From: Bacillota bacterium | GTDB lineage: Bacteria > Bacillota > Clostridia > Acetivibrionales > DSM-1351 | Assembly: GCA_023431385.1 (NCBI GenBank) | Contig: JAEYWA010000153.1 | Span: forward strand, 7,272 to 71,271 | DNA length: 64,000 nt | Direction: 5' to 3' | Part shown: one piece after another, positions 1 through 51,351 of the stretch | Numbering within the stretch: the stretch's first letter is position 1 | How the letters are laid out: every line of letters starts with the position of its first letter | Notes under the pieces: generated by a model | The model's database searches: none | Told to the model about the DNA's origin: nothing | What the model saw: the letters and a program-made list of their open reading frames with translations, nothing else | Program-made: the position numbers and the translations under genes

Positions 1-166
1 ATTTCAACATTACAAAATATTCGTTCAGACTACTGATTTCAAGAAGTTCGGCACGTTTTTCAATTCTCTTTTGTACAAAATACTTCTTATTAATCTCATA
101 ATGAATTCCAGTTTTTTTGTAAATCAATTTTACAAACTTATCATATAATTCGTCTGTTAGTATCAT
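1..166 (-). CDS. cheR: CheR chemotaxis methyltransferase, N-terminal fragment; the gene continues past the left edge
   Basis: Not in the ORF track because it is truncated. Minus-strand translation from ATG 166..164 gives MILTDELYDKFVKLIYKKTGIHYEINKKYFVQKRIEKRAELLEISSLNEYFVMLK, which fits the CheR N-terminal helical domain pattern. Its start overlaps the stop of the HEAT gene as ATGA. Confidence 0.7.
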   Translation of the reverse strand, partial: MILTDELYDKFVKLIYKKTGIHYEINKKYFVQKRIEKRAELLEISSLNEYFVMLK

Positions 167-2082
167 CTTGCCACCTCTGTCTTCAGCAAGGCTTCTTTGG
201 CTGCTTCCCTCACCTCTTCGACCTGATCCTCCAATAATCCCTGCAAAACAGTATCTGCATTACTACTCCCGAACAAGCCCAATGACCTAACGGCTGCAAT
301 TCTTGTTAAGGTTTCCTGGCTGCCTGCAGCAGTAACTACAATATTAAATGCAATGTCACTTTGAAATTTATATAAGTTTGAAATAATGTCCATCCTGTTA
401 ACGGTATTTGATTCATTGTGATACAATTTCTCTAACAAATTCAGGCTTCTGACATCAGGTATTTTAATTAGAGCTTTTATTGCTTTTCTCCTGACCACAG
501 GAGACGGGTCGTTAATCATTGTATTCATAAAGCTAAAAAACTCTCCCTCTGAAGAGTACTCAACTATACTTATCAATCCGGCACGGACACCCTCATTTAT
601 ACTGTCCATCCTGGTATTAATGTGTTTCCAGCCATATACAGTGTTCAGTCTGAAGAGAGCTTCCAGAGCTTCCATACCTTCTTCTCCCGGATTACGCCCA
701 ACAATCTCTTCAAGCAATTCAAGGCTTATTTTTCCATTATATAAAACAAGCTTACGGACTACGGCTTTTCTTACTTTTTTGTTTGGGTGCTCCAGCTTCA
801 TCAGAAGAAAGTCAATATTCGGTGTCCCACTTGCACACTTGCTCTCAACAGAAGCAAGCTCTGCTTCTTCACTAAAGTCTGTCAGACTTTCAAGAAGGTG
901 TGAGTTATTATACGAAGTAATTTCAGCAACAATTCCTATAGCCTGACTAGACACATCTCTGTCTTGCGAGCTGCACAGTTTCTCAACAATAAAGTTAAAG
1001 CCCTCAATTTCTTTTTTGTATATAAGCCTTAATCCCATCAATATCAATTCAGGTTCCTTGCACTCCAGTAGTTCATTAATAAATGAAGGCGGAATACTGT
1101 CCAGCTTATACAAGAGATCACTGAGGTTTTCTATGAAGAACTCCTCTCCCTTGTTTAAATCATATATTTCTATAATGTGATGGAGGAAGAAATTCATCTG
1201 TAAATTAACAAAGGCATTTATCGAAACAAGTATATTCTCTGAATCCTTGTAGTCCCAATGCTCTCTGAAAAATCCTTTAATTTCTTCAAATTCACTTTCA
1301 GGGAGACTGAATATACTATTATTTACGATTAGGCTGCTTAACCCAAAGATCATGTTTTCATCACTAATACAAAAATTCTTTGAATATGTTTGAAGTATTC
1401 GGATAATATCTGGATATGATCCGATAGATCCTAATGATCTTACAAATGTATTCATTAAGATATTTTTTTCTACAGCAGAAACATTCATTGAAAATATTTT
1501 ATCTGCAATGACTTCTGATACTTCTTTTGTACCTAGACTTTCAAAAGTACTTAAAAGTGAGTTTATAACCCAGACACTGCTTGTGTCATTAAGCATATCC
1601 AGTAACTTACCTTCAGCCTCCTTGTATGCTTGCTCAGCAATAACTTCCAGAGCTGCTTCCACAACATTTTCATCCGAATCGTCCAAAGCCGAAAGTGCAA
1701 TTTCACAACTGTTTTTCCCCTTGATGTATTTAAGTGCATCCAATGAGAATTTTCGAATATTCCTATCTTTGTCGCACAACTTCATTTTTAGAGATGGTAA
1801 AGCCTTTTCATCTAATATAACCAGCAGCTCTATTGCTAAATTTCTTATGTAGGCATCATCTGAATAAAATAGATCAGTAACAAGTTCAGCAGTTCTTTCA
1901 AGTTTTACACGACTAATTTTCTTCGCAAGCTTCTCCTGCTTATATCTCTCCTTTTCTGTTGTAAGACAATGAATAAGAACCTCCATGTCCTGATTATTAT
2001 TTTCACCATCAAATCCCACAGCAAGTCTGTCAATAATAGTAGTTAGCTCCTGTCCGGCAAATATTTCTTCTCTATTCGTCAT
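163..2082 (-). CDS. HEAT/PBS-lyase-type repeat protein
   Basis: Repeated HEAT-like units: DKDRNIRKFSLDALKYI, DDSDENVVEAALEVI, HPNKKVRKAVVRKL, NDPSPVVRRKAIKAL, EDQVEEVREAAKEAL. The start is trimmed from 2241 to ATG 2082 (MTNREEIF). The longer ORF would overlap the upstream gene by 170 nt; the trimmed one overlaps by 11 nt. Confidence 0.7.
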   Translation of the reverse strand: MTNREEIFAGQELTTIIDRLAVGFDGENNNQDMEVLIHCLTTEKERYKQEKLAKKISRVKLERTAELVTDLFYSDDAYIRNLAIELLVILDEKALPSLKMKLCDKDRNIRKFSLDALKYIKGKNSCEIALSALDDSDENVVEAALEVIAEQAYKEAEGKLLDMLNDTSSVWVINSLLSTFESLGTKEVSEVIADKIFSMNVSAVEKNILMNTFVRSLGSIGSYPDIIRILQTYSKNFCISDENMIFGLSSLIVNNSIFSLPESEFEEIKGFFREHWDYKDSENILVSINAFVNLQMNFFLHHIIEIYDLNKGEEFFIENLSDLLYKLDSIPPSFINELLECKEPELILMGLRLIYKKEIEGFNFIVEKLCSSQDRDVSSQAIGIVAEITSYNNSHLLESLTDFSEEAELASVESKCASGTPNIDFLLMKLEHPNKKVRKAVVRKLVLYNGKISLELLEEIVGRNPGEEGMEALEALFRLNTVYGWKHINTRMDSINEGVRAGLISIVEYSSEGEFFSFMNTMINDPSPVVRRKAIKALIKIPDVRSLNLLEKLYHNESNTVNRMDIISNLYKFQSDIAFNIVVTAAGSQETLTRIAAVRSLGLFGSSNADTVLQGLLEDQVEEVREAAKEALLKTEVAR

Positions 2083-3735: not shown

Positions 3736-4740
3736 TTACAATCTTAACTGATGTTCTGGTAAAGTAATAATAAACTCTGTGCCCTGATTTACTGTACTTT
3801 TGACCTGAATATCTCCACCGTGCTCCCGGATAATTCCATAGACGATGGACAGCCCCAGTCCAGTTCCTCCAGAGTCTTGATTTGTGGTAAAGAAGGGATT
3901 AAATATATTATTTAAGTTCTTCTCATCAATCCCACATCCATTATCACGTACACTAATGAGTAATTTACTTATCCCTTCTCTCATTACGCTTATTTCTACA
4001 AACCCTGCTTTGTTCAAATCGTCAGCTTTAATGGCTTTAATAGAATTCAAAAATAAATTAATAAAAATCTGTTCCAACTGCTGTCTGGATCCATAAATGA
4101 GAAACTGGTCTTTTTCAATGTTGCTCCTTAAGCTTACTTTGTTTCTCACGAATTCATTTTTTACAAGCTTGTAAGCTTCAGTTATACAACCATATAAATC
4201 AAATGCTTCGTAAGATACCTTTTCCTGCCTTACAAAAAACTTTAAACCGCTGATAATGTCCATTATTCTGTCAGTTCCCTTATACATGGATTCAAAGGTA
4301 TCTTTAAACTCTTCAACATACGGAGTAGCATCATCACTTATCAATAAACCGTTTTTCCACATTATATTCAAATACTTTTGAAGCAGCTCAATATTTGCTC
4401 TAATATAAGTAGTAGGATTATTAATCTCATGAGCTACACCTGCTACCAGTTGCCCCAAAGAGGCCATTTTGTCAGCCTGGATTAATGCTTGCTCCTGTAC
4501 CTTGATTTTCTCTACCTGTTCCCTATTTGATTTCTTCAATTTTTCAAGAAATTCGGTCTTTTGCTTATCATTTATCAAAAGCTCATTGCTATTTTTCTCA
4601 ATCTCCTGTAAAAGAGCGAGAACCCCGGTGTTGGTTTCTAATAACTCTTCTATTAGTCCCTTAACCTCTTTTTTAAGATTCTCATTTTCTTTTTGTAAAT
4701 TACAAAAAAGCAGGTAGTAAAGCATATGTTCTCCATTCAT
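3736..4740 (-). CDS. Cytoplasmic sensor histidine kinase (coiled-coil N-terminus, HisKA, HATPase_c)
   Basis: H-box LVAGVAHEINNPTTYI, N-box FINLFLNSIKA, G-boxes RDNGCGID and GGTGLGLSIV. No hydrophobic transmembrane segment. Confidence 0.9.
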   Translation of the reverse strand: MNGEHMLYYLLFCNLQKENENLKKEVKGLIEELLETNTGVLALLQEIEKNSNELLINDKQKTEFLEKLKKSNREQVEKIKVQEQALIQADKMASLGQLVAGVAHEINNPTTYIRANIELLQKYLNIMWKNGLLISDDATPYVEEFKDTFESMYKGTDRIMDIISGLKFFVRQEKVSYEAFDLYGCITEAYKLVKNEFVRNKVSLRSNIEKDQFLIYGSRQQLEQIFINLFLNSIKAIKADDLNKAGFVEISVMREGISKLLISVRDNGCGIDEKNLNNIFNPFFTTNQDSGGTGLGLSIVYGIIREHGGDIQVKSTVNQGTEFIITLPEHQLRL

Positions 4741-4751
4741 AGATTCACCAC

Positions 4752-5786
4752 TTACAGAACTGCGACTAAAATTGTCGCATCATCGTTATGTCTCTCATAC
4801 TCGTTAAAAACCATATTACATAATAGCGATGGGCTTTTCGCGACCCCTTCAGCGTAATTTTCAACTTCCCATTTTGAGGTTATGCCATCAGAACACAGTA
4901 CTAACATATCCCCGTTACTAAAAATGTGTCTTCTGGCTTTACAGCTTCCACTGTATGCTCCAACATAACCGTTATATGACAGCAGTTTCACTGTTGAACC
5001 TGCCGTTATATGCCTGCAATCAATATTACCAATGGATATCATTTCAAATTCATTTGTGAATTTGTATATTATAAATAGAGCTATTACCGCTCCTCGAGTA
5101 TTCTTCAAGGCAGTGTTTGTTTGTTTAATAATATCTTCAATAGAATTCTGTGTATTTTCTTCAATTATTTTTACTGCACGGCTGGCGGCTTCATGTGCTT
5201 CCATTCCATGACCCAATCCATCAACTACGGCAATAATATCCCTATCCTCAAAGTTCCTTATATAATAACAATCACCGTTCACTAAAAAGCCTGTATAGGG
5301 TCTGCTTATCACACTGACTTTTATTTCTGAACTACCTATTCCTGAGGTATCAGTTAATGCCATGCTCCATAGCCTAATTGTTAACGTCGTTTCCACCGGC
5401 ATCCCTTTTTTTATAACATTTTCAGTATTTGATCTAATCTCAAAAAAGTCACTAAAGCTATTTATTGTTCCAAATCCATCATCAATTGTTCCATTAATGG
5501 ATGCGCCATCTTTCTGCCCCTCATTAATGTCTTCTTTTCCTTGAACCTTATCCTCAGAAATGATTTCGATTCCAACCCTGTTGTCGGCAGTAATCTGAAA
5601 AAACCTGATCTTCCCATTTATAGATTTATGTTTAACAATATTACTGCAAAGTTCACTTATAACAATAGAAGTCTCTGTTATTTCCTTATTGGAAAACTTA
5701 AGCGATTTCATCATATCCGCTATTTGCCTTCTTATAAATCCAGTGTCATAAGTGCCCCGCACTTCATATTCGAAAATAAGGTTCAC
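4752..5786 (-). CDS. Fusion of an RsbW/RsbT-like HATPase domain and a PP2C (SpoIIE-type) phosphatase; RsbX/RsbU-position protein
   Basis: N-terminus ETSIVISELCSNIVKHKS (anti-sigma-kinase type HATPase). C-terminus GDCYYI...AVVDGLGHGMEAHEAAS...VLCSDGI...DDATILVAVL (PP2C metal-binding Asp motifs). It starts 4 nt after the rsbT stop. Confidence 0.8.
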   Translation of the reverse strand: MNLIFEYEVRGTYDTGFIRRQIADMMKSLKFSNKEITETSIVISELCSNIVKHKSINGKIRFFQITADNRVGIEIISEDKVQGKEDINEGQKDGASINGTIDDGFGTINSFSDFFEIRSNTENVIKKGMPVETTLTIRLWSMALTDTSGIGSSEIKVSVISRPYTGFLVNGDCYYIRNFEDRDIIAVVDGLGHGMEAHEAASRAVKIIEENTQNSIEDIIKQTNTALKNTRGAVIALFIIYKFTNEFEMISIGNIDCRHITAGSTVKLLSYNGYVGAYSGSCKARRHIFSNGDMLVLCSDGITSKWEVENYAEGVAKSPSLLCNMVFNEYERHNDDATILVAVL

Positions 5787-5790
5787 CTCC

Positions 5791-6237
5791 TTAAAGCCAC
5801 TTCTTGATTATAATTTTTGTTCCCTTGTCTGTTTGTGAAGTAATGCTGAAATCATCCATTAGTCTTTTGCTTCCCGGAAGTCCCAGACCCATTCCCTTAC
5901 CTGTAGTAAAACCTTCCTCCATGGCTTTATCAATATCCGGGATTCCAGGACCCTTATCCTCAAAGGTAATCATTATGCCGCGTTTTGTGTCACTGGATAC
6001 ATCCTCAATAATGACACAACCGGTTGAAGCATATACATAAATGTTCCTTGACAGTTCACTGACAGCAGTAATAATCCTTGTCTGGTCTGTTATACTAAAA
6101 TTCATGTTCCTTGCTGCTTCGCGCGCTCGTTGCCTGGCTGTCACGATATCCTTTTCATCTTTTATGTGGATTTCAAATAATTTCAATTTATTCCACTCCC
6201 TATTCCAGGTCTTCAGCACATATTTCTTCAAATCCAC
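5791..6237 (-). CDS. rsbT: RsbT-like stressosome serine kinase / switch protein
   Basis: ARQRAREAARNMNF...AVSELSRNIYVYA...FEDKGPGIPDID...GKGMGLGLPGSKRLMD. Small HATPase of the RsbT type, directly after rsbS. The GTG start at 6237 overlaps the rsbS 3' end, so the exact start is uncertain. Confidence 0.8.
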   Translation of the reverse strand: MDLKKYVLKTWNREWNKLKLFEIHIKDEKDIVTARQRAREAARNMNFSITDQTRIITAVSELSRNIYVYASTGCVIIEDVSSDTKRGIMITFEDKGPGIPDIDKAMEEGFTTGKGMGLGLPGSKRLMDDFSITSQTDKGTKIIIKKWL

Positions 6238-6595
6238 TGGCTTTTACATGATCTTCAAGTATTTTAATCCCTATATCAGCATTTAACGCAATTTCTACAC
6301 CCTGAATATCCAGTCCTAACTCTTCCAGGGTTATGGCAACGTGTGGCTTCATACCGGTTAACACGGCTTTTGCCCCTAAAAGCTGTACCATTTTTACCGT
6401 TTCGGAAATAACCCTTCCCAGATAGGAATCGATAATGTCCAGCAGAGAAATGTTAAGAAGTACTCCCTTGGCACCAGTTTCATATATCTTGTCAAGAATA
6501 CTCTGCTGAAGCGACAGAGCCATATTGTCATTAATATCTCCCTGAAGAGAGACTATCAATATTTTATTCATTAAAATCATAGGGATACTGTCCAT
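6200..6595 (-). CDS. rsbS: RsbS-like single-STAS stressosome scaffold
   Basis: ILIVSLQGDINDNMALSLQQSIL...GVLLNISLLDIIDSYLGRV...LLGAKAVLTGMKPHVAITLEELG. STAS domain with the conserved D-S phospho-site context. Confidence 0.85.
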   Translation of the reverse strand: MDSIPMILMNKILIVSLQGDINDNMALSLQQSILDKIYETGAKGVLLNISLLDIIDSYLGRVISETVKMVQLLGAKAVLTGMKPHVAITLEELGLDIQGVEIALNADIGIKILEDHVKASGFEEICAEDLE

Positions 6596-6618
6596 TTTTA
6601 ATGCTCCATTCCATTTAG

Positions 6619-7482
6619 TTACTTTACCAGCCTGACGGCCTTAAATCCTGCCATCTCCATAGCCAGCTTTATACCATCGGCCATCACTGCTCTGGTGGTA
6701 ATACAAGACAGATCTACTCCGAGATGAACCATGGTTTGAGCAATCACAGGACTGATTCCGGTAATAATTAGCTCCGCTCCAAGGAGCTTTGTGGCACTAG
6801 CTGTTTTCAATAAATGATTTGCCACCAGTGTATCCACGGTAGGGATCCTGGTTATATCAACTATTGCAACCTTTGACGAAGTAGAAACAATCATTTCCAG
6901 TAGCTTTTCCATGATCATCTGTATTCTTTTACTGTCCAGAGTACCAATCAAGGGTATGGCTAAAATCCTTTCCCAGACCTGTATTATAGGTGCAGATAAT
7001 TCAACCATGTCCTGTTGCTGACGGATGATAATTTTTTCACGTTCTCTAACATACATATCGAAAGTATATAAACCCATTCTGTCCAAAATTTCTGAGATTC
7101 TGAAAGCTTCTCTGCTTAAGTTTAGATAGTCAGCGTAGCCGATTTTACTAAGCTCATCGAATATTATCTTTTTCAAAGAAAATATGAAAGTGCTGACTTC
7201 TACCTGGTTCAATCCTTTAGCTACCGCAATTTTGGAGTAGTCATCCAGATTTTTTTTCGCATCGCTTAGTTCCGGTACCCTCAAAGAAAGGTCCCCTTCG
7301 TACTCAATCAGCATTAAAAATGTATGAATAATCTTATTACACAGGCTGGCTACTTCACTTTCGGTAAACAATTCATTTATATTAAGTGACTTGTTTTGGA
7401 TAGTATCAATCCAAATGCCAGCTAGGTCATCCTTTATCTGAAATAGAATTTCATTAGTTTTACTGATAGTTGAATTATTCAT
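6619..7482 (-). CDS. rsbR: RsbR-like stressosome sensor (N-terminal helical sensor domain plus C-terminal STAS)
   Basis: The C-terminus ELSAPIIQVWERILAIPLIGTLDSKRIQMIMEKLLE...VAIVDITRIPTVDTLVANHLL...GAELIITGISPVIAQTMVHLG is the RsbR STAS signature, including the VDT phospho-site. The ~150-aa N-terminal helical domain is consistent with an RsbR_N (globin-like) fold. Confidence 0.85.
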   Translation of the reverse strand: MNNSTISKTNEILFQIKDDLAGIWIDTIQNKSLNINELFTESEVASLCNKIIHTFLMLIEYEGDLSLRVPELSDAKKNLDDYSKIAVAKGLNQVEVSTFIFSLKKIIFDELSKIGYADYLNLSREAFRISEILDRMGLYTFDMYVREREKIIIRQQQDMVELSAPIIQVWERILAIPLIGTLDSKRIQMIMEKLLEMIVSTSSKVAIVDITRIPTVDTLVANHLLKTASATKLLGAELIITGISPVIAQTMVHLGVDLSCITTRAVMADGIKLAMEMAGFKAVRLVK

Positions 7483-7490
7483 ATGTCCTC

Positions 7491-8585
7491 CTATTTTCTT
7501 ACCGCTTTTGTTATGGCATCCGCTATTCTATAAGAAGGTACTACTATTTCTGCACCACCTCTTTCTATAGCTTCTCTTGGCATACCGAAAACCACTGCAG
7601 TGGACTCATCCTCAGCAATGGTCACACCGCCTGCTTTTCTTATTTTTACCATAGCGTCAGCCCCGTCGTCACCCATACCCGTCATAAGAACTCCAATAAC
7701 GTTCGGCCCTCCGAAAGTATCCAGTACAGACTCCATTGTTACATTTACAGAGGGCATAAAAACTGTTTTAGGACTACTGGGAAGCCTTATTATTCCACCT
7801 TCTCCGCGTACTACCAACTGGTATCCTCCTGGTGCCAGAAATCCCCTTCCATTATGCAGAACATCTCCAGCTTCCGCTTCTTTTACAGGAATCCGACATG
7901 CGGCATTCAGCCTTTTTGAAAAGGATGACGTAAATGATGGCGGCATGTGTTGAATAATTATTACCGCCGCTTTCAAGTCGTGCGGAAGCATAGGAAGCAC
8001 TTCCATAAGAGTACCCGGTCCACCGGTAGAAATACCTATAACCACCACCTTTGTTAATTCACTGCCCTTCTGCGGTCTCCTCGTTTTGAGAGGTTCTGCT
8101 ATCCTGGGTGACAAATAATTGCTACGTCTTGCTACTCTATCTCTAATATTTTTTTTGTTTACACTTTTATAAGCCAGCTTAACCTTTTGTATGATTTCTC
8201 TTCCTACTACGTGCAGATTGGAGGAAACAGTTCCTGATGGCTTTGTGACATAATCAAAAGCCCCCAACTCCAATGCCTCAAAGGTGGTCAATGCTCCTTC
8301 TGCAGTGAGTGAGCTTATCATCAGAACAGGGGTTTCTGGATACTCACTCAATATGTATTGCAAGGAAGTTAATCCATCCATCACAGGCATGTTGATATCC
8401 ATTGTAACTACATCCGGTTTTAAATCCTGCACTTTTTCAATTGCATCCTGTCCGTCTCTGGCTGTTCCCACCACCTCAAGACCTGAATCAGTCATGATTA
8501 TTTCCTTAATGGACTTTCGCATTAAAGCAGAATCATCTACAATCAGTACTTTTATTTTTTCGCTCACAAAACTCACCTGCCGCAT
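7491..8585 (-). CDS. cheB: CheB protein-glutamate methylesterase (REC plus methylesterase)
   Basis: KVLIVDDSALMRK...VVTMDINMPVMDGL (REC); VVIGISTGGPGTL, IIQHMPP, MTGMGDDGA (Ser-His-Asp esterase motifs). The start could instead be GTG 8567, preceded by AGGTGA. Confidence 0.9.
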   Translation of the reverse strand: MRQVSFVSEKIKVLIVDDSALMRKSIKEIIMTDSGLEVVGTARDGQDAIEKVQDLKPDVVTMDINMPVMDGLTSLQYILSEYPETPVLMISSLTAEGALTTFEALELGAFDYVTKPSGTVSSNLHVVGREIIQKVKLAYKSVNKKNIRDRVARRSNYLSPRIAEPLKTRRPQKGSELTKVVVIGISTGGPGTLMEVLPMLPHDLKAAVIIIQHMPPSFTSSFSKRLNAACRIPVKEAEAGDVLHNGRGFLAPGGYQLVVRGEGGIIRLPSSPKTVFMPSVNVTMESVLDTFGGPNVIGVLMTGMGDDGADAMVKIRKAGGVTIAEDESTAVVFGMPREAIERGGAEIVVPSYRIADAITKAVRK

Positions 8586-8657: not shown

Positions 8658-10133
8658 TTAACTATTACTTAATACTTTACCTATATCCAGAATCAGAATC
8701 ATTCTCTTACCGCCATCCAGCTTTCCAACACTCTCTACATAATCACTGTCAATCCCGCTGCTTAAAATGTCCGGAGGTGCCTGAATCAATGTTTTTTCAA
8801 ACCGTAGTACTTCTGAAACAGAATCAACAATTATACCTGTCCTCTTTCCACTGAAATCGACGATAATAATCCTTGTAGCGTCGGTCACCTGCTTTTCTGC
8901 GAGATTAAAAAGCCTTCTCAAATCCAGCGCAGGAATTACATTTCCTCTCAGGTTGACAATGCCTTCAATATAATAGGGGGCTCTGGGTATCTTGGTAACC
9001 TCTGTCATTCTATTAATCTCCTGTACATTAGCTATTTTAATGCCATACTCTTCCATGTCAATTTTAAAGGTCACCAACTGCTCTTCGTCAAGAATCTGGA
9101 CGGTTATACTTTTTTCCTCAGCCTGTTCTTCACAGGTCTCACTATTGCCTGTTATTGCACTTATCTCATCAGCGGATATCAGCTTTGCAGGTTCAAGCAA
9201 AAGAATCATTCTTTTTCCATTATTGAGCTTAGCTACACCCTTAAGCTGCTCCCCGCTGTGCTTAGAGAATTTTGGCGGAGGCTGAATAATACTTGTCTGT
9301 ACCCTTAGAACTTCTGAAATTTTATCCACCATAATTCCAGCAGTGAAGCTGCCCATGTCAACTACAAGAATTCTCGTATGGTCATCGATTTCCTTATAGT
9401 CCATTCCGAAGTAAGTCCTTAAGTTTATTATTGGGAGCAGGTTATTACGTATGGATACTACTCCCTCAATATGAGCCTCACAATTTGGAACTTTAACTAT
9501 TTGTGGAATACGGATGATTTCTTTTACATCCATAATCCCAATGGCATATTCTTCATTATTAAGAAGAAATGAAACCAACTGTTCTTCATCAATAGACTCT
9601 GTTATCGCACTGCTTATTATAGATTCTAATTTCTGTTTATCAGCATTTCGTCCGTTTAGTTTCTCTTTTCCGATTGTATTGACCTTCAAGGCCTTTACAA
9701 CATCTAAAAGCATGACCAACCTATTTCCATTGTCCAGCTTAACAACACCATTCAAATAATCTGAATCCACATTTTTTACTATCTGTGGTGGTTCCTCAAT
9801 GTCAGCTGTACTGACTCGCATTACTTCCGATACCCTGTCTACAATAACTCCAGTAGCCTTACCTTCAACATCTATGACCAGAACCCTGCTGTTTTCATCC
9901 TTAATTTTCCTTTCTAAATTAAACCGGGTTCTTCCATCAATAATAGGCAGGACATTTCCCCTTAAATTGCAGGCACCCTCCACATACGCTGGAGCATTCG
10001 GAACCTTTGTTATTTCAGGAACTCTGATAATTTCCTTAACATCCATGATATCAGCCCCGAATTCATCATCACCAAGAAGGAAGGTAACCAACTGGCGCTC
10101 TGTAAGGCCGGTATTATTTATACCAGTTGCCAT
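8658..10133 (-). CDS. Triple-CheW-domain coupling protein
   Basis: Three full CheW repeats (about aa 10-150, 185-325, 348-490). Each begins with QLVTF/QLVSF...EYAIGI/EFGADI...V.EI.R and ends with G(K/N)R.(I/V).LL(D/E). Confidence 0.85.
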   Translation of the reverse strand: MATGINNTGLTERQLVTFLLGDDEFGADIMDVKEIIRVPEITKVPNAPAYVEGACNLRGNVLPIIDGRTRFNLERKIKDENSRVLVIDVEGKATGVIVDRVSEVMRVSTADIEEPPQIVKNVDSDYLNGVVKLDNGNRLVMLLDVVKALKVNTIGKEKLNGRNADKQKLESIISSAITESIDEEQLVSFLLNNEEYAIGIMDVKEIIRIPQIVKVPNCEAHIEGVVSIRNNLLPIINLRTYFGMDYKEIDDHTRILVVDMGSFTAGIMVDKISEVLRVQTSIIQPPPKFSKHSGEQLKGVAKLNNGKRMILLLEPAKLISADEISAITGNSETCEEQAEEKSITVQILDEEQLVTFKIDMEEYGIKIANVQEINRMTEVTKIPRAPYYIEGIVNLRGNVIPALDLRRLFNLAEKQVTDATRIIIVDFSGKRTGIIVDSVSEVLRFEKTLIQAPPDILSSGIDSDYVESVGKLDGGKRMILILDIGKVLSNS

Positions 10134-10150: not shown

Positions 10151-12091
10151 TTACATATTCTGAAGTTCATCGGCCAATCCTGATATCTCTTCGATGGCTT
10201 CTGCAAGTTCCTGCATACCTTTTGCCTGTTCAGAGGCTGCGGTTGATGCCTGTTGTGCTCCGCTGCTGGCCTCCTGGGCGGCAGTAGCAATTTGGTCAAC
10301 ACCCTTCCTTGCCTGCTCAAGGGCTATCATAGACTCTTCTGAACCCCTCTGAATTTCTTTTGCACCTGATAGTATTTTAATCATATTCTCTTCAATTACA
10401 TTCAGGTTGTGAGTAGTCTTTTTGGCCTTCTCAACTTCGGCAAAGGAGGTTTTGCTGGAAATATCCGTATCAGCCGATACCCTTTGGATTTGGTTCTGTA
10501 TACCTCTAACAAGGTCTTTTATCTTATCTGTATTTTCTGCCGACTCATTGGCAAGTGCCCTAATATCTCCTGCAACCACTGAGAATCCTCTTCCAAATTC
10601 TCCTGCCCTGGCAGCTTCTATAGAACCATTAACAGCCAGCATATTAGTTTGTATAGTGACATTCACAATGGCATCTACGATTTTATCGATTCTTCTTGTA
10701 GTCTCTTCAAGACTCTTTATGTTCCTTGCCGCTACAACACTGGCTTCAGCTGAAGAAGAAATTCCGGCAATCATATTATCAACAGCTATTTTATTGGCCT
10801 CCAATAACTTTTGGAGTTCCTCTATCTTATCCCCTGAGTAGCCTGACCTATCACTCATTTGTTTAGAAGCAGCAGCAAGCCTTTCTGCCAGATTTGCTGC
10901 TTTCTCAGTAAGCTCTGCCTGAGCCCTGGCACCAGAAGATATCTGCTCCATAGCTTTTAATATCTCTCCAGCTGTCGAGTTTGCCTCCTCCACATTTGCT
11001 GACAATTCTTCTGAAGCTGCCGCTAGTGACTCTGAGGATTTCTGAGCATCTGTAGATACCTTGAGGTCCTCGGCCATCTGAGCAAGATCAGCAGCACCGG
11101 CATTTAATTCGTTGAAAGCCTTATTCTGTATCTGGATGGATTTTTCTACTTCTTCAGCAGCGCTGCTCTGCTGCTCTGCTGCTGCTGCAATTTGCTCGGC
11201 AATACCAAGGAACTCACCCGCTCCTTTATTTGCATCCACTGCATTTTGTGATACCTCTGTTACATATTTTTGTACCTGTACAATCTCCTCATTGATTTTA
11301 ATCAGGTCAGCAGTAGTTCTCTTTGCTTTCTCAACTTCATCATTGGCCGCGTTGCCGGCATTTTCAATATCTACTACAACAACTTTTACATTGTTTTGTA
11401 TTTCAGTTACAAGTTCTCTTATATTCCTTGCAGATTTCTCAGAGGTTTCTGCCAGGTTTCTGACTTCATCGGCCACAACAGCAAATCCCTTACCGTGTTC
11501 GCCTGCTCTTGCTGCTTCTATGGCAGCATTAAGTGCAAGAAGATTAGTCTGGTCAGCAATTCTGACAACGGCCTGTACAATTTCTCCGATCTCATTGGAT
11601 TGCTTTTCAAGTTCTCCGACCAGTTTAACCGACTCCATATTTGTATCAGCTGACTCTTTAATTCCTTTAATCATTAACTCGATATCGTTGGATGTATTTT
11701 CTAGTAAATCCTTAGCTATATCAACTCTTTCAAGCGAATCCTTTGCGTTTATGTCAGCAACTACTGAAGCCTTGTCGATCTGGTTAATGGCAGCCCTTGA
11801 CTCTTCTGCCGCAGACGAAGCCTCACTGGCGCCCTTTGCGATTTGCTGCATAGTTGCGCCTAATTCTTCTGCAGCACTGCTGGCTTCTTCTATCCCTGAA
11901 GCCAGCTGTTCTGTAGCTACAGCTATTCTTTCAGCCAACTGCTGCTGTTTTGCCAATGTTCTAGCCCTTACCTTATCCTGCGCTTGTTTCCTCGCAAGTT
12001 CTCTCTTTCTCTCCATTTCATCTGTTGCCGATGCTAGTGCAGGTCCTTTTACACTTCTTTCGCTTGAAGGTTTTGCAAGCTTTTTTTCCAT
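10151..12091 (-). CDS. Soluble methyl-accepting chemotaxis protein with two tandem signalling (MA) domains, DosM-like
   Basis: No transmembrane segment. There are two hairpin-tip motifs exactly 300 aa apart: [35 protein letters not shown] (aa 181-215) and [35 protein letters not shown] (aa 481-515). Several methylation-site-like EE/QQ heptads are present ([27 protein letters not shown]). Confidence 0.85.
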
Positions 12092-12210
12092 AACAAAACA
12101 ACCTCCTAAAATTATTAACTTTTACATGAAAGTTTATTTGATTAAATGCACTTAAATACAGACCTTGCACATCTATATTTCTCGTACATCACATCCTTAG
12201 ATAGGAATAA

Positions 12211-12465
12211 CTAAGTTAATGAGCCCCCGATTTCAAGTTCAGGATTAAAAATTATGTAGAACATATTCACTCCATCTACTGTAGGTTCATTCCCTAAATA
12301 CCCATCCTTATATAGTGGAGTTATCTTTTGTCGAAGTTCTTCAATACTGCACATAATATTGTTTTGAACAAGTAGCCTGTGAATTTCTGCCAGTGTGTTA
12401 ACCTCCGATTCACTGCCCTTTATGTATTTTAAAAATTCCTCATCCGTCAACTGGAACATAAACAT
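12211..12465 (-). CDS. Hypothetical 84-aa protein inside the che-type cluster
   Basis: ORF only. It sits 28 nt after cheY and is co-directional. No recognisable motif. Confidence 0.35.
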   Translation of the reverse strand: MFMFQLTDEEFLKYIKGSESEVNTLAEIHRLLVQNNIMCSIEELRQKITPLYKDGYLGNEPTVDGVNMFYIIFNPELEIGGSLT

Positions 12466-12493
12466 TATCCTCCTTAATATATGTAAATTTATG

Positions 12494-12853
12494 TTAACTT
12501 TTGAATTTAGCCAGAGTTTTTATTACAACCTCTTCCTTATACGGTTTTATAATAAATCCTTTAGCTCCACTCATAATTGCTCTTTGTACGTATGACTCCT
12601 GCCCCATGGCAGAAACAATAACAACTGTGGGTTTATATTCCAATCTACTAATCTCCTCCATGCACTCAATTCCATCCATTTCAGGCATTGTAATATCTAG
12701 TGTAACTATATCCGGATTTAGTTCCTGTATTTTTTTTAACGCTATCCTTCCGTTTTCAGCCTCTCCAGCAACATGAAACCCATTTTTCTCCAGAATTTGT
12801 TTCAGCTGCATCCTAATAAAAGCAGCGTCGTCCACAATTAATACAGATGTCAT
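12494..12853 (-). CDS. cheY: CheY-like single-domain response regulator
   Basis: VLIVDDAAFIRMQLKQIL...IVTLDITMPEMDGIE...VSAMGQ...GAKGFIIKPY. The start is trimmed to ATG 12853 (MTSVLIV), with an AAGGGG Shine-Dalgarno sequence 7 nt upstream. Confidence 0.85.
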   Translation of the reverse strand: MTSVLIVDDAAFIRMQLKQILEKNGFHVAGEAENGRIALKKIQELNPDIVTLDITMPEMDGIECMEEISRLEYKPTVVIVSAMGQESYVQRAIMSGAKGFIIKPYKEEVVIKTLAKFKS

Positions 12854-13409
12854 AATAACCCCTTTCCAAGTAACAGATAATATCAAGTTTGAGCAATCGG
12901 TGATTTCCTTTTAATCTTAAGCCTTATCTACATTTTGTTAATAATTTTACATAAGTATTTTACATAAACTAGTATTAAAGCATATTTTTACCTACTAAAT
13001 ATTTACTATTTGGTATTACTACATAATAAGTAATAGATAATATAAAGATACTATAAAGAGATTTTCAGCATAGTTGCCATAACTAATTAACTTTTTTCAC
13101 CTGATGAAATTATGATAAAATTCAAAGATATGTATCAGGTGAGTATTCACTCGCCTGATGTAATTATAAAGTCCTATAGTTCAATATGTCAAGTCCCATA
13201 CTTATTTTTCCTATTGATTTTGCAATTTTTTAGAATTTGTTATGTTATGGAGAATTGCATAGAAGAAGTTGTTCAGTGTTTCTAGCAAATGAATTGTTTG
13301 ATAAATCCAAGAGATTACCGATTTAAAGCACATTAAAAAACCGACATTAGTGTTACGGCCTACTCGTAGGAGTAAATAAAATCATTATATTGTGTATAGA
13401 GATGGCTAC

Positions 13410-13441
13410 AAAAATGTGAAGGGGTCAATCTTGTCCCCTCC
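13410..13441 (-). terminator. Probable rho-independent terminator after the REC gene
   Basis: Minus strand reads GGAGGGGACAAGATTGACCCCTTC followed by ACATTTTT. It is a GC-rich hairpin with a U-run about 20 nt after the stop at 13463. Confidence 0.45.
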
Positions 13442-13462
13442 ACAAACTATCGAATAATTAAA

Positions 13463-13855
13463 CTAAAGTACCGCCAGCTTTCTCATGGCCTCTTCCAGCT
13501 TATTTAGTTCAATTGGCTTATTAACATAGGCTTCCAGCCCTGTCGTAAAAGCACTCATAACATAGTTTGTCTCTCCCAAAGCAGTAGTAACTATGATCTT
13601 TGTGCGATTTGCCTCTTCAATTCCTCTGACTTCCTCCAACTCTCGAATTGTCTTTAATGCCTTGATCCCATCAATTTTTGGCATCATGACATCAAGGCAT
13701 ATCAAATCATAGGGTTTTCCCGTATCAAGCCCCAGGATAAATGCCTCAATCGCTTCAATACCATCTATTGTTAGATCACATTCACCGTAAAAAGACATAA
13801 ATTTGAATATAAACTTCCGACTGGCAAAGTCGTCTTCTGCTATCAATATTTTCAT
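13463..13855 (-). CDS. Single-domain response regulator (REC)
   Basis: KILIAEDDFASRK...LICLDVMMPKIDGI...TTALG...NKP. It starts 2 nt downstream of the hybrid kinase gene. Confidence 0.85.
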   Translation of the reverse strand: MKILIAEDDFASRKFIFKFMSFYGECDLTIDGIEAIEAFILGLDTGKPYDLICLDVMMPKIDGIKALKTIRELEEVRGIEEANRTKIIVTTALGETNYVMSAFTTGLEAYVNKPIELNKLEEAMRKLAVL

Positions 13856-13857
13856 CC

Positions 13858-16068
13858 CTATTTTCCCCTCGTTTGTAATATATTTTTGAATGCATCACTT
13901 ATTTTCGGCATCTCATAAATAATACCTTTCAAATCTTCACGTCTTGCCGCAAGCTCTATTGTGAACGCAATTCTTTTTAACTCATCTGCACGAATACTGG
14001 CAGCAAGCTTTTTAATTATATTAGCTTCTTTCTCTATTGTGGTTATATCGTTGTTATCCAGAGCTTCTTTCATACTTTGGATGTGCTGTCCTATCCTTTC
14101 ATGCAGTTCAATGGTTTCCGTTGGATTCATGATCTTCTCATCAGTCTGTAGAGAGTCTAGGATTTCCCTCTCCTTTATTTTCTTAGCATACCTGTCAAGG
14201 ATAGCGTATAACTCTTCCATCCGCACCGGTTTTGCTATATATTCATCCATACCAATAGATAAAAAGCGTTCTTTATCTCCTTTTAAAGCATATGCGGTCA
14301 CTGCAACAATCGGAATGTGTTTTACCTCGCCTTCCATCTCCCGGATACGTTGAGTTGTATCAATACCATCAATTTCCGGCATTTTAATATCCATAAAGAT
14401 AATATCGAAATTCTCCTTCTTAATGATATCAAGGGCCTCTTTACCATTTGGTGCAATTTGCATTGTGTGCCCTTTATTCGATAACATCTGTTGAAACACA
14501 TTCTGGTGTACCTCATCATCTTCTACCAGAAGGATTTTCAGAGGAATATTCAGGTTTTTAACCAGGTCCTTATCGGCTTCTTTCTTTACAGGTACTTGTC
14601 CAACCATTAGAGGTAAAGTAAAGAAAAAAGTACTTCCTTCTCCCTTTCTGCTTTCTACCTGTATTGTACCGCCCATCCTTTCCACAAGCTGTTTAGAAAT
14701 TGCCAGTCCAAGGCCTGTTCCGCCAAACTTTCTGGTTATCGAACCATTAATTTGACTAAAGCACTGAAACAGTCGGTCCATTTCACTTTCATCAATTCCT
14801 ATGCCAGTATCTGACACTCTGAATAAAAGCTCAAAATTGTCCGATTTCTTAGAATGCTTTTCAATAGATAGTACAACCCCCCCGTTTTCAGTAAACTTCA
14901 ATGCATTTCCGATAAGATTATCCAAAATCTGTTTTAACCTCATGGAATCACCTATTAAATACGTCGGTATTCCAGATGAAAACTGATATTCCAAAGAAAG
15001 ATGCCTATGGTCTGCTTGAACAGAGTGAGCTTTTATTACATCCTCAATTAATCTATAAATATTAAAATTCGTATTATCGATAGTTAACTTCCCCGCTTCC
15101 ATTTTAGAAAAGTCAAGAATATCGTTGATTACCTTTAATAATGAGTCTGCGCAGGATTTTGCAACATTTAAATTATCCCTTAGTTTTTTATCAATATCTG
15201 ATACTAATGCCAAATTGAGCATTCCAATTATTCCATTTAAGGGAGTACGTATTTCATGGCTCATATTTGCCAGAAATTCGCTCTTTGCCTTATTCGCATT
15301 CTCTGCAGTCTCCTTTGCTCCCTCTAATTGCTTTTCGGCAGCTTTAAGATCTGTAATGTCATCAATGATTACCATAACCTGTTTTTCTCCAGAAACAGCA
15401 ACGGGTACAAAATTAATTTTATACCAAAGCTTTTTGTTTTTCCCGTTGATTATCAAGGTTTTCTGAATAATTTCATTATTGAGAGGTTCCCCTGACCGCA
15501 GGACCTGCCTTATTAATTTCCTAAGAGGCTTGGGAGTTACACCATGGCTATATCCCATCATTCTAACAAAAGCCGGGTTCATCTTCCTAACAACAATATT
15601 TTCGTCCACTATTGCCATTCCTAATGGATTTGACTCAAACTGAATTTCTAAGCTTCTCCATTCTCGGCGGAGTTCTTCCTCTATTGTTTTAATTCGTGTA
15701 ATATCTCTGAAAATGATAATAATCCCGGTAATATCATGCTCGGAGTTCCTTATTGGTGAACAACTGGCTGATATAAGTTTTTTTATCCCGCTTCTTGAAA
15801 TCAGAACGATATTACTCTGAAGTTCAACCGCTTTTCCAGCATCCAAAGCCATAGTAATCGGGCTTTCCATAGCTTCACCAGTAGTCGCATTTACTACTGA
15901 AAACACCTTGTCGAAAGCCATGCCAGTAGCAGTTTGTGATGACTGTTCTGTTATCTCCTCGGCAGCAGAGTTTATAAACGTTATTACTCCATCCAAATCG
16001 GTAATGATCACACCTTCTCCTATACAAGCAAATACTTCCTTAGAGTTTAATTCTTTCATCATTTTCAC
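13858..16068 (-). CDS. Hybrid sensor histidine kinase (PAS-PAS-HisKA-HATPase-REC-Hpt-like)
   Basis: H-box [16 protein letters not shown]; DTGIGI and [11 protein letters not shown]; [12 protein letters not shown]...[14 protein letters not shown]...VTAY...KP. The C-terminal four-helix region [20 protein letters not shown] aligns with the Hpt motif but has Asn where the His is expected. Confidence 0.85.
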
Positions 16069-16134: not shown

Positions 16135-16734
16135 TTAGCAAGTCTCCATTATATAGTTGTGAGCTGTAAGAATCCTTTCCTTAAGTGGAAAGTTATACTT
16201 TCTCATTCTCCACTTCAAGCTAATAGCTGTAAAAGTACCCAGAATGATATCGGAATAGCTTTCACTATCAATATCAGGCCTTATTTCACCATAATCTATA
16301 CCTCTTTTAATGAGATATGTAATAAAACTTGATCGTGATTCGAATATCTCTATGATTCTGTGTGCAATTCCTGCCTCATTTTTCAATACCTCGTATGATT
16401 GCAGAATAGAGGTCATAGCAGGATAGCTTTCATAGTATTCGGCAAACCTTGTGATGAAGTATGTAATACTATCCTTGGCAGAAAACCTGTTCATTTCAAT
16501 AGTCTGCTTAATATCAACATCAAACATGGTATAATAGTCCAAAACAGCCAGAATAATCCCATCTTTGCTGCGATAATGCTTGTATAAAGTCCCCTCCGCA
16601 ATCTTCTGTCTTTTAGCTATTTCCTTTGTAGACAGACCCTGAAAACCCAACTCGTCTATAATCTCTATTGCAGTAAGAATAATTCCCTCTTTCCGTTTTA
16701 TATATATGCTCACATCAACACCCCATATACGCAT
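16135..16734 (-). CDS. TetR/AcrR-family transcriptional regulator
   Basis: Helix-turn-helix GFQGLSTKEIAKRQKIAEGTLYKHYRSKDGI. The true start may be a few codons downstream of 16734. Confidence 0.8.
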   Translation of the reverse strand: MRIWGVDVSIYIKRKEGIILTAIEIIDELGFQGLSTKEIAKRQKIAEGTLYKHYRSKDGIILAVLDYYTMFDVDIKQTIEMNRFSAKDSITYFITRFAEYYESYPAMTSILQSYEVLKNEAGIAHRIIEIFESRSSFITYLIKRGIDYGEIRPDIDSESYSDIILGTFTAISLKWRMRKYNFPLKERILTAHNYIMETC

Positions 16735-21172: not shown

Positions 21173-22420
21173 TCACTCTATAATCAATTGTTTTATTTCC
21201 TTTTTGATATTTCCCTTACTATATAAAATACATAAAAACGTGACTAGAGGAAAGATTGTAATTCCAATAGCTGTTGTAAGGTAAGCAAACCTAATATAAT
21301 CAAGCATAAAGCCAACTACTGCAACTGCCAGTGGCATAGAACAATTTCCAAGAAAATTTACAATCGACCAAACTCTTCCGGACATGCTTTCTTCAATATT
21401 TTTTTGCAGAATAACCTGAAAGCATGTTGCAGCAAACATGATGACGGAACTATAAAGTAAAAATACAAACAAGTACGGTACAACACTCATAACTTTAGCG
21501 GTAAACAGTACACCAAGCAGGATATATATTCCCCCTATGATGTAAAGACTGGTGAATAAAACCTTATCCTCCCTATTATTAATATTAACTATATTTAGCA
21601 GTATGGATGCTGCTAATGCACCGACTTCAAAAAATGTTTGAATATATCCCATGTTCTGCGCACCATTTCCCCGGAGCTTTATTGATAAAGCTGGTATAAC
21701 TACATCAATGGCTCCGACAAAGAAATGCCCCACAGCTACAACTATCACTACTGCTAATAAGGACTTTTTCTTGAAGATATATTTATATCCGTCAGAAAAC
21801 TTATTTTGAACTTTATTTTCTTTTTTAGCTACACTCGGGATATTTATTTTTGTTGTCAAAATAGTTGCAAGAAAAAATGAAATTGTATTGAATATAAAGA
21901 TAAAAATATATCCTATGTTTGCAACCATAACACCCGCAAGTAATGGACCTATAATTGTTACCGAAGCCGTAATAAGCTGCATTCTGGCGTTAGCCTTTGC
22001 CAAACGATCCTTTTTAACAATCTGAGGAAGCACTGAAAATACCGTCGGACTAAAAAAAGCTGAACATACCGAGAGTATTATTTGCGAAAAGATAATGATT
22101 GGTAATGTAAGTGCATCAATAGAGAATAATAATGTAACAGCTGCAATTACCAGCCCTCTTATGATGTCAGTGATGATTAATATAGCTTTCCTGCTATGTC
22201 TGTCAATAAATCCACCCAATAAAAAACCCGTTATGATTGAGGATAGCATCGGGAATAGAATTACCGTGCCCATAGCTGTGGTAGACTTCGTTGTGTTTAA
22301 TACTAAATATGCAAGTGCAAACGAATAAAACTTATCTCCCAATTGTGAAATTGTCTGTCCAAACAATAAATAGAAAAAATTAAAATTAACCTTATCAGTT
22401 AGTAGTTTCATATTTCTCAA
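21173..22420 (-). CDS. MFS transporter (12-TM type)
   Basis: Polytopic hydrophobic profile with a GFLLGGFIDRHSRK loop motif typical of MFS. The start is TTG 22420 or ATG 22411. Confidence 0.75.
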   Translation of the reverse strand: MRNMKLLTDKVNFNFFYLLFGQTISQLGDKFYSFALAYLVLNTTKSTTAMGTVILFPMLSSIITGFLLGGFIDRHSRKAILIITDIIRGLVIAAVTLLFSIDALTLPIIIFSQIILSVCSAFFSPTVFSVLPQIVKKDRLAKANARMQLITASVTIIGPLLAGVMVANIGYIFIFIFNTISFFLATILTTKINIPSVAKKENKVQNKFSDGYKYIFKKKSLLAVVIVVAVGHFFVGAIDVVIPALSIKLRGNGAQNMGYIQTFFEVGALAASILLNIVNINNREDKVLFTSLYIIGGIYILLGVLFTAKVMSVVPYLFVFLLYSSVIMFAATCFQVILQKNIEESMSGRVWSIVNFLGNCSMPLAVAVVGFMLDYIRFAYLTTAIGITIFPLVTFLCILYSKGNIKKEIKQLIIE

Positions 22421-47391: not shown

Positions 47392-49107
47392 TTATACCTT
47401 GAATTTACCAACTACATCCTTCAATTTCTTAGCATTGAAGCTGCTAATATCCATCTGCTCCTGTACATCGTTAACCTTTTGCAGGATGTCAGTTGACTTT
47501 TCAGCTATATTCTGAGTTCCGGCCGCACCTTCATTAACAGTCTTCGAAACTTCGTTGATTGTGCTTATTATACCTTCAACCGAGGCAGTCAGCTCCTCAG
47601 CAGTGGCACTGAAGTCAGTAACAAGATTGTCTATGAAAATTGCATCGTTGCTATAATAATCTCCGGTTTCTATCATTGCTTCATAATCCTTTATTACGTT
47701 TGTATCCATAAAACCCATAATTGATCTTGAACTGCCTACCAGGTCCTCAACTGCTGAAACCACTTCCTTTGCTACCTTTTGTATTTCATTTACTGTACTC
47801 TTTGAATCCTCTGCCAGTTTTCTAATTTCATCTGCAACAACGGCAAACCCCTTTCCTGCTTCTCCAGCTCTGGCCGCTTCAATAGCAGCATTTAAAGCCA
47901 GTAAATTGGTTTGTGAAGAAATCTTCAGGATTGCCTCTGACAGAACGCTGATCTGTTCGATAGCCTTTGACCTGTCCAGTGATCCTTCAAGCCCCTGCTT
48001 TACCTCATGATAAATATCATTACCCGCTTTCTGTGAGAGTTCAGAACTTATTTTTAGGTCAGTGGCGCGTTTACTGACCTCTCTAGCTGCGACCGCACCG
48101 CGTTGCGCTTTTTCAGCCATGGCTTCAATTGCGTGCTCAATTTCTGAGGAGGACGCATTGACCTCCTCCGTTGCCGCCGCAGTCTCTTCCATCCCGGCCG
48201 AGATTTCTTCTACTGTTGCTGAAGTGTCCTCCGCAGCTTTGTTTAGATGGATTAGACTACCTGAAACAGCTGCGGCGGCTAGTTCTACATTTCTCGAGCA
48301 TTCATTAACTTCCAGCATAATCGACCTCAGATTAGCTATAAACTTATTAACACTCTTAGCGAGATCACCGATTTCATCCCTTGAGTCTATTTTAATCTCT
48401 TTTGTTAAATCTCCACCCCTATTAGCCAAATCCTCAAGTTCTTTTCCAAGCTGCTTTATCGGGCGTATTATGCCGTTTGTAACAAATATACTTATCAGTA
48501 TTCCAAATAGAATAGCTGAACCCAAGATAGCCAAGCTCGTGAAAGCTGTGGCTTTATAATTTTGATTGTTTTTAGTGTGTATATCATCAGCACCTTTGGC
48601 ATTATAATCCGCTAAAGCCTGTAGCCCATTGTAAAACTTATTTTCAGTCTCTGCGTTTTCCTCAAGATATTTGAAAGCTTCACTGCCCTTCCCCTGCTTC
48701 GCAAGCTCAATAACTTCATTTATAAGGTTATTATATTCTCCCCAGTTTTTATCTATAGCTGATATAGTGTCTAATTCAAATTGTTCAGGACTTACAGCCT
48801 TATATTTCTTCCAGTCTTCTTCTAGTTTTTCCGATCTTTTATCAATATCCTCAATATAGCGAGCCTGATCTTTTGCATTTCCGCTGTAATGGATAACATA
48901 TAGAACATCTGCTCCTCGGGCTCTACTCTGGTTTCCCATATCATTAATCCATTCTATTGGCTTTAGTCTGTCTTTATATAGTGAGGTCATCTCCCCATTG
49001 ACATGTTTTAGATAAGTGAAATTTACACCACCGATCAATGCCATAAAAACCAAAAGTGTAACTGACAGGGTTAAGATTTTTTGTATTACCTTCATTTTTT
49101 TTAGCAT
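47392..49107 (-). CDS. Transmembrane MCP (four-helix-bundle sensor, HAMP, MA)
   Basis: TM1, [15 protein letters not shown] (4HB_MCP type), TM2, a HAMP region, and [35 protein letters not shown]. Confidence 0.9.
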
Positions 49108-49352
49108 GAAATCATATCCTCCGTTGAATAATTATTAAAACATTCTTTGCTACAATTACAAAAATTATGTAAAGTTTGTAGTGTTTTCAAGCATATGATT
49201 TAAATTATAAGTTCTTTTCCCGTTTTCTACAAGTATATACTTTATTATGTAATATTAATGCAATCTTTCCAATTGAATAACAAATAATTATCGAAAAAAT
49301 TTAGACTTTTATGGCAGGTGTGCTCCAGCTTCGCTGGACACACGCACACAAT

Positions 49353-49400
49353 AAAAAGGGGTTGTCGCACAGTTCCTATCTCCACTGTACGACAACCCTT
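49353..49400 (-). terminator. Rho-independent terminator after the upstream MCP paralog
   Basis: Minus strand reads AAGGGTTGTCGTACAG-loop-CTGTGCGACAACCCCT followed by TTTTT. Confidence 0.75.
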
Positions 49401-49408
49401 TTATTCTC

Positions 49409-51124: not shown

Positions 51125-51351
51125 ATGTATTCTCCATTCAACATAAATTTTATAAATAACTGTTAGCAATTTAGTCCAAAGTGTAACATTATGTAAACAG
51201 CTTCAAAATATTAATATTATACCACATGTTTAATCCGTAGCAAGCTATTTATGTGTCAGAACATCTTGCCATACAAAAAATAAAGTTGTATGATTTAACA
51301 AAGTCGAGGTAATTCTATTTAATGTATAAATAATTAGGAGGAGTAACCCAT

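Follow-up and report, generated by a model that had tools for sequence, protein, structure and literature searches.

What is a soluble chemoreceptor with two signalling tips in a single chain for, and from where might it take its signals? The question is raised by a 64,000-nucleotide stretch of a Bacillota bacterium of the Clostridia (contig JAEYWA010000153.1 of assembly GCA_023431385.1, positions 7,272 to 71,271; hereafter the window), in which a dosM-like gene on the minus strand encodes a 646-residue receptor near the start of a large chemosensory operon. Judged from its sequence, this receptor is clearly orthologous to DosM, which has a double signalling domain and belongs to the F9 class of chemosensory systems, and its operon also carries a gene cassette of stressosome type.

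The dosM-like gene starts with an ATG at 12091 that has an AGGAGG motif 8–9 nt on its 5′ side, and its product is rich in Ala, Glu, Ser and Gln, with Pro, Phe and Trp nearly absent. Because the maximum Kyte-Doolittle mean over 19 residues is only 1.11, the protein has no transmembrane segment, in agreement with the original prediction, made from the DNA letters alone, that it would contain no hydrophobic stretch. Searches against Pfam with the whole protein returned MCPsignal, the signalling domain of methyl-accepting chemotaxis proteins (MCPs), as the sole family (216 bits in two stretches), and no sensor domain. When the two halves were scanned alone, residues 1–344 gave a match of 128.3 bits (E=3.7e-37, residues 153–289) and residues 345–646 one of 99.9 bits (E=1.9e-28, residues 455–602), both far higher than the Pfam cut-off of 34.6 bits; the profile search proposed along with the prediction had called for just such a non-overlapping pair. 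The halves form an internal repeat that aligns end to end at 33% identity (BLASTP, E=2e-39), and the motif EAARAGE occurs in both, at residues 192–198 and 492–498, so that the predicted spacing of 300 residues between the two signalling hairpins is exact. Each tip is flanked by arms of ~148 residues, and methylation-like motifs, searched with the pattern [ASTG]2-x2-[EQ]2-x2-[ASTG]2, occur at residues 64, 71, 92, 302–303, 364, 602 and 609 and thereby on all four arms, as had also been foreseen.

Both hairpin tips had been recognised correctly, although one residue too early (184–213 and 484–513 for 185–214 and 485–514) and with no mention of the strand, which is the minus strand. In an alignment of 59 homologues (53–92% identity, mean column identity 64%), 29 of the 30 residues of tip 1 are at least 90% conserved, and 26 of the 30 match TM1143, the Thermotoga maritima receptor whose cytoplasmic domain is the crystal structure of PDB entry 2CH7. 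Tips 1 and 2 share 20 of their 30 residues and differ at the other 10, which fits only in part the earlier description of tip 2 as slightly degenerate; 23 of the 30 residues of tip 2 are themselves at least 90% conserved, this tip retains Asn, Glu, Arg and Phe where it aligns to the tip of Escherichia coli Tsr, and in the alignment its AGD-I-R stretch resembles the AGEVR of Tsr. By this pattern of conservation both tips are under strong purifying selection, and tip 2 is diverged yet constrained, not decaying.

Sequence alignments and structure models support two complete hairpins. Half 1 aligns to both arms of the TM1143 hairpin with E=4e-20, and half 2 does so with E=8e-18, including 175 residues of the N-terminal arm that align gap-free. 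An AlphaFold2 model of the full-length protein, calculated from the 59-sequence alignment, has a predicted local distance difference test score (pLDDT) of 87.5 and is all helical from residue 22, with helices assigned by DSSP to residues 22–345 and 349–645; the sole non-helical break, residues 346–348, coincides with the repeat boundary obtained from BLASTP. The pLDDT dips near residues 197, 345 and 497, reaching its minimum of 76 near residue 345. Because DSSP left the tip turns unmarked in the full-length model, half 2 was modelled separately; on its own it forms a complete hairpin (pLDDT 89.4) that superposes on Bacillus subtilis McpB, McpC and YvaQ over 300 columns at 2.2–2.9 Å (TMq 0.87–0.92) and on 2CH7 with template modelling (TM) scores of 0.65–0.69 in both normalisations. 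Since these 302 residues superpose on MCP domains, half 2 is a hairpin that turns at the MCP tip.

These models also bear on a different fold, a single giant hairpin turning at residues 346–348, which we ruled out: the model of half 2 by itself is a whole MCP hairpin, the matches that Foldseek gave to 2CH7 and 3G6B (23–26% identity) are homologous tip to tip, and the sequences of both halves cover the two arms of TM1143. The original prediction had named a single long hairpin as the result that would speak against it, and the half-2 model is instead a full MCP hairpin. Arms of 21–22 heptads, together with the gap-free alignment of the N-terminal arm to TM1143 and the 300-column fit of half 2 to the 44H-type receptors of B. 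subtilis, agree with a 44H-like length; the phmmer gap pattern against TM1143 is asymmetric and yields no formal heptad class. The signalling domains of Vibrio cholerae DosM (VC1403) are classed 44H.

Sequence and gene order both identify the receptor as DosM. First, WP_062408673.1 from Paenibacillus naphthalenovorans, which is catalogued as DosM (S6 Table of PMC9321776), is 79% identical to the window protein over 100% of its length. Second, the operon has the canonical F9 gene order [DosM W3 B. R Y A] given in the same table (PMC9321776). Two architectures, that of DosM and that of a triple CheW (CheW3), are found in no other class than F9 (PMC7534058, PMC9321776), and the adjacent triple CheW that had been predicted is indeed present in the window; our F9 assignment is one by gene order and signature proteins. 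While the DosM-like identity thus holds, the rarity and novelty implied for it were overstated, as DosM with CheW3 defines a class already catalogued: full F9 clusters occur in 64 of 2,781 surveyed species, 15 of the 492 Firmicutes among them (PMC9321776). Of DosM homologues, 98% are without transmembrane region and sensor domain (PMC9321776). The receptor is one more member, from an uncultured Clostridia-type organism, of a catalogued family, and is not new.

Comparison of the two halves across distant DosM proteins points to a single ancient duplication. In a set from Acidobacteriota, a Competibacteraceae metagenome-assembled genome (MAG), Microvirga, Bradyrhizobium, a Clostridia MAG, Paenibacillus and Desulfosporosinus, which spans Acidobacteriota, Alpha- and Gammaproteobacteria and Firmicutes, N-terminal halves share a mean of 45% identity with each other and C-terminal halves 46%, whereas N-terminal against C-terminal halves reach a mean of 31% and a maximum of 39%; CheW3 and CheB adjoin DosM in every member. 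Because like halves are more similar than unlike ones, the duplication is ancient and shared, and the two-domain architecture inherited rather than a local fusion, with the N and C halves each orthologous across phyla by these identities. In the scan of genome contigs with the DosM alignment, generic MCP tips dominated the matches and only L007–L012 were DosM-type; the close Firmicute F9 loci used below were collected one by one, outside that scan.

The same data leave next to no room for an artefact, in which ordinary MCP fragments would have been mis-assembled or recently fused into a functionless chain. The unusual architecture is all that would suggest it, whereas there are more than 100 full-length homologues (53–100% identity) from isolates and metagenomes, a sequence identical to the dosM-like gene lies on several independent contigs, and the cross-phylum orthology of the halves and the column identity in the alignment above speak for a long-maintained protein. 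We regard this explanation as vanishingly improbable.

What, then, would two tips in one chain do? Cryo-electron tomography (cryo-ET) of V. cholerae DosM shows an extended rod whose tips lie in two CheA/CheW3 baseplates and which stabilises a sandwiched cytoplasmic array (PMC7534058, PMC9321776), with only every other trimer of dimers occupied by DosM in these arrays (PMC7534058). On the same pattern, two chains of the window protein would pair, each half forming a four-helix bundle, and the homodimer would be an extended rod of ~44 nm (2 x 148 residues x 0.148 nm) with one tip at each end. Each tip would plug into a separate CheA/CheW3 baseplate, so that DosM would tie two facing layers of receptors together in a sandwiched array free of the membrane, a double-baseplate arrangement that we infer here by homology with V. 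cholerae only. Because there is no sensor domain, the protein would act mainly as a scaffold and as a substrate for adaptation by methylation, with signal input coming from partner proteins; CheW3, CheA, CheB, CheR, several CheY, CheX and a ParA-like ATPase are encoded in the same operon. Taken together, we think it likely that the protein is an F9-class DosM whose two tandem hairpins, 44H-like in length, make it a scaffold stapling opposed receptor layers.

Several observations weigh against this proposal. The predicted TM score of the full-length model is only 0.58; the three-residue junction would fit hairpins that stand end to end as well as hairpins side by side; DSSP labels the tips as helix, and the hairpins of the full-length model rest on Foldseek superpositions and the half-2 model. 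Furthermore, the operon holds no second soluble MCP gene.

Geometry is also what sets apart the main rival of the end-to-end rod, a single-chain pseudo-dimer in which the two hairpins would lie against each other, making up a four-helix bundle within one molecule, and both tips would enter the only baseplate of a one-layer array. Residues 345 and 349 are both distal to the tips, and a linker of three residues would be enough for such a fold; the arms are of equal length, and tips that have diverged from each other while each is conserved are what a fixed heterotypic pair would show. However, cryo-ET of the V. cholerae ortholog showed a rod that reaches from one baseplate to a second (PMC7534058), the helical extension conserved at the N-terminus (residues 22–50) would be partnerless in a compact bundle, and a triple CheW together with a ParA-like partition gene is typical of free cytoplasmic arrays. 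We therefore consider the pseudo-dimer improbable.

The operon around dosM is a full F9 cluster, because an identical contig (L001) continues it beyond the left edge of the window into cheR, cheY and cheA. There, at positions 13540–20411 of L001, follow cheR, cheY, cheA (743 residues), cheY, two cheX genes, a parA-like gene (its product resembles the ParA/MinD ATPases) and another multi-CheW gene, giving with the window the order Y, x, DosM, W3, B, [cassette], RR, Hpt, HEAT, R, Y, A, Y, X, X, ParA, W3 (x, small open reading frame; RR, response regulator). A partial F9 set without CheA, which the window by itself would have suggested, is ruled out by this continuation. Features of the locus are collected in Table 1. 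The cheY-like gene at the head of the operon is kept there in Petroclostridium sp. X23 (L087) and in L091, L092 and L093; copies of the small open reading frame behind it, 51–77% identical, occur in the F9 clusters of L087, L088, L093 and L096, the last (Clostridium beijerinckii) having it next to the parA-like gene instead, and it matches no family in Pfam or NCBIfam. CheW3 adjoins dosM in all DosM loci that we examined, and the HEAT-repeat gene stands in the same place in L007, L090, L091, L093, L095 and L096.

Table 1 Positions in the window of the dosM-like gene, its parts and the surrounding operon.
Feature	Position	Strand	Basis
dosM-like gene	10151..12091	-	open reading frame and translation; encodes the soluble 646-aa chemoreceptor, two MCP signalling hairpins
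hairpin tip 1, aa 185-214	11450..11539	-	conservation, TM1143 match, pLDDT dip at ~aa 195-200
hairpin tip 2, aa 485-514	10550..10639	-	conservation, superposition of half-2 model, alignment to TM1143 and Tsr
inter-hairpin junction, aa 346-348 (VST)	11048..11056	-	DSSP, pLDDT, repeat boundary
promoter-like site TTGACA-18-TATAAT	13163..13192	-	12/12 consensus match only; ~310 nt upstream of cheY
cheY-like single-domain response regulator, first operon gene	12494..12853	-	Pfam Response_reg; 119-aa call on identical contig L001
small conserved open reading frame, 82-84 aa, between cheY and dosM	12211..12459	-	copies in other F9 clusters
cheW3, three tandem CheW domains	8658..10133	-	CheW matched in 3 stretches by both Pfam (356 bits) and NCBIfam
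cheB, receiver and methylesterase	7491..8585	-	Pfam CheB_methylest and Response_reg
stressosome-type cassette, five genes	3736..7482	-	between cheB and the response regulator/Hpt genes, within the F9 operon; Pfam
RsbR-like	6619-7482	-	Pfam; C-terminal STAS domain
RsbS	6200-6595	-	Pfam
RsbT kinase	5791-6186	-	Pfam
HATPase_c_2 + PP2C phosphatase	4752-5786	-	Pfam
HisKA histidine kinase	3736-4725	-	Pfam
single-domain response regulator, 136 aa	3295-3705	-	Pfam Response_reg
CheA-P1/P2-like Hpt protein, 402 aa	2072-3280	-	Pfam Hpt and weak P2 match
HEAT-repeat protein gene	163..2082	-	Pfam HEAT_2; F9 clusters usually have an 'unknown' gene here, between cheB and cheR
cheR 5' end, cut by window edge	1..166	-	translation of 2-166 equals first 55 codons of L001 cheR

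Where could a receptor without sensors obtain its input? The five genes that lie between cheB and the response regulator offer a candidate. Their composition is that of a Vibrio-type stressosome module with two-component output, namely RsbR with a STAS domain, RsbS with its serine, RsbT and PP2C, followed by a histidine kinase. The RsbS matches B. subtilis RsbS (6JHK) with E=1e-27 and keeps the phosphorylatable serine of the IDS motif, and the STAS domain of the RsbR-like protein matches the RsbR proteins of Vibrio vulnificus and Listeria (7O0I, 7B0U) with E ~1e-30. In its longest open reading frame the PP2C protein has an N-terminal HATPase_c_2 domain (RsbW/RsbT-like), as it does in Petroclostridium, Clostridium cylindrosporum, C. 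beijerinckii and Desulforhopalus; the gene call on L001 begins 24 codons after the start of that frame.

The cassette occurs within F9 operons of at least five Firmicute lineages, including the window organism, at three positions relative to the che genes. In Petroclostridium sp. X23 it has the same place as in the window, in Heliomicrobium gestii (L095) it follows cheB, in C. cylindrosporum (L094) it lies upstream of dosM and in C. beijerinckii after cheA; the F9 loci L088, L089 and L091–L093 are without the RsbR-RsbS-RsbT-PP2C-histidine kinase set. In Desulforhopalus, a more distant RsbR homologue heads a stand-alone cassette of five genes in the same order, with a GGDEF output and without che genes. 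As far as gene content tells, the cassette is a generic stress module repeatedly linked to F9 clusters in Firmicutes, and its presence at three positions in several F9 lineages argues for selection on the linkage.

Directly downstream of the cassette lie the genes of a CheY-like response regulator and an Hpt protein, a pair more constant than the cassette. The Hpt protein contains a CheA-type P1 domain with an AHTIKG histidine and is without the dimerisation, kinase and P5 domains; NCBIfam matches cover the CheA N-terminus only, and its C-terminal ~150 residues have no family match. The pair is kept in all close Firmicute F9 clusters, also in those without RsbRST, PP2C and the histidine kinase, and coexists with the full-length CheA encoded in the same cluster. 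The recurrent linkage of the cassette suggests that stress signals sensed by one large cytoplasmic complex may be passed by a phosphorelay, from the histidine kinase to the response regulator and Hpt protein, into a second complex or parallel to it. It is possible, as gene linkage hints, that in this clade the sensor-less DosM/CheW3 array is wired to the stressosome, a proposal that we put forward tentatively. We found no description of a link between stressosomes and F9 clusters in the literature searched, stressosome papers included, which is not proof that it has gone unreported; the embedded cassette is the less expected feature of the locus and may be new.

A receptor that receives such input could be more than a passive scaffold. 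It might instead process signals, with the stressosome, Hpt, HEAT or STAS proteins modulating CheA through it. DosM arrays without sensors need other inputs (PMC9321776), CheB and CheR are encoded in the operon, the cassette and the Hpt/response regulator pair are recurrently linked to DosM clusters, and the methylation-like motifs on all four arms and the unusual second tip would let the protein receive such input. Nevertheless, the protein has no sensor domain, gene linkage alone is not proof of protein interaction, many close relatives are without the cassette, and signal processing is compatible with a scaffold role in any case. As an explanation to replace the stapling scaffold we judge it quite improbable, somewhat more so than the pseudo-dimer.

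By itself, the receptor leaves the understanding of F9 arrays unchanged, and it is the operon context that deserves follow-up. Published work ties F9 arrays to stress and starvation, and the cassette and the kinase-less CheA-P1/P2 protein are found in F9 operons of several cultivable Firmicutes as well. If they are functionally coupled to the array, cassette and kinase-less protein would together be a concrete candidate, open to testing, for the sensory input that F9 arrays lack, and the locus an example of two large signalling assemblies in series.

Comparison with known systems shows which parts of the locus are shared. V. cholerae DosM, encoded in cluster I (F9; Briegel et al. 2016, reviewed in PMC7534058), is likewise soluble and sensor-less with two tandem MCP signalling domains, and its gene also adjoins cheB and the gene of a triple CheW, the cluster order being DosM-W3-B-x-R-Y-A; this likeness to VC1403 is one of architecture and gene order. 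In contrast to the V. cholerae cluster, the window operon belongs to a Firmicute lineage, opens with an extra cheY and the small open reading frame, and adds the Hpt/response regulator pair, two cheX genes, the parA-like gene, a second multi-CheW gene and the five-gene stressosome cassette, while it has no gene for a 24H or PAS-containing MCP. The cluster of P. naphthalenovorans 32O-Y shares the DosM-CheW3-CheB start, the Hpt protein, response regulator, CheR, CheA, ParA and second CheW3 with the window but lacks the RsbR-RsbS-RsbT-PP2C-histidine kinase cassette and the HEAT-repeat gene. TM1143, McpB, McpC and YvaQ have the same antiparallel hairpin fold and length as each half, with a nearly identical tip; unlike the window protein, which consists of two fused hairpins only, they are membrane-anchored single-hairpin receptors with sensor and HAMP domains. 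The cytoplasmic cluster of Rhodobacter sphaeroides (TlpT, CheW4, CheA3/CheA4, PpfA) resembles the array predicted for the window operon in being membrane-free and having a ParA-like partition ATPase, and its CheA3 is comparable to the Hpt protein of the window operon, which is of CheA-P1 type and lacks a kinase domain of its own; R. sphaeroides differs in using single-domain soluble receptors and is not known to have DosM or a triple CheW.

Upstream of the operon, the sigma-70 consensus lies ~310 nt before the first gene, and a long AT-rich leader (12854–13192) is therefore implied; an Rfam search of this leader gave no credible family, and no terminator-like site was found in 12000–13600. Directly upstream of the operon, at 13463–16068 on the minus strand, are genes for a PAS-PAS-HisKA-HATPase-receiver-Hpt hybrid kinase and a single-domain response regulator, with a TetR gene beyond them at 16135–16734. 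The same trio of TetR, hybrid kinase and response regulator precedes the F9 cluster of Petroclostridium sp. X23.

Further into the window, at 47392–51169 on the minus strand, two tandem chemoreceptor genes encode proteins of 571 and 586 residues with the arrangement 4HB_MCP_1 - HAMP - MCPsignal. These are ordinary transmembrane MCPs and are unlikely to be partners of the cytoplasmic array. Finally, in the F9 cluster of Desulfosporosinus (L090) a gene with a STAS domain follows cheA (21933–21944), and a soluble MCP of 269 residues is encoded before dosM (8769–9578), suggesting that F9 clusters have alternative accessories, among them STAS proteins and short soluble receptors.

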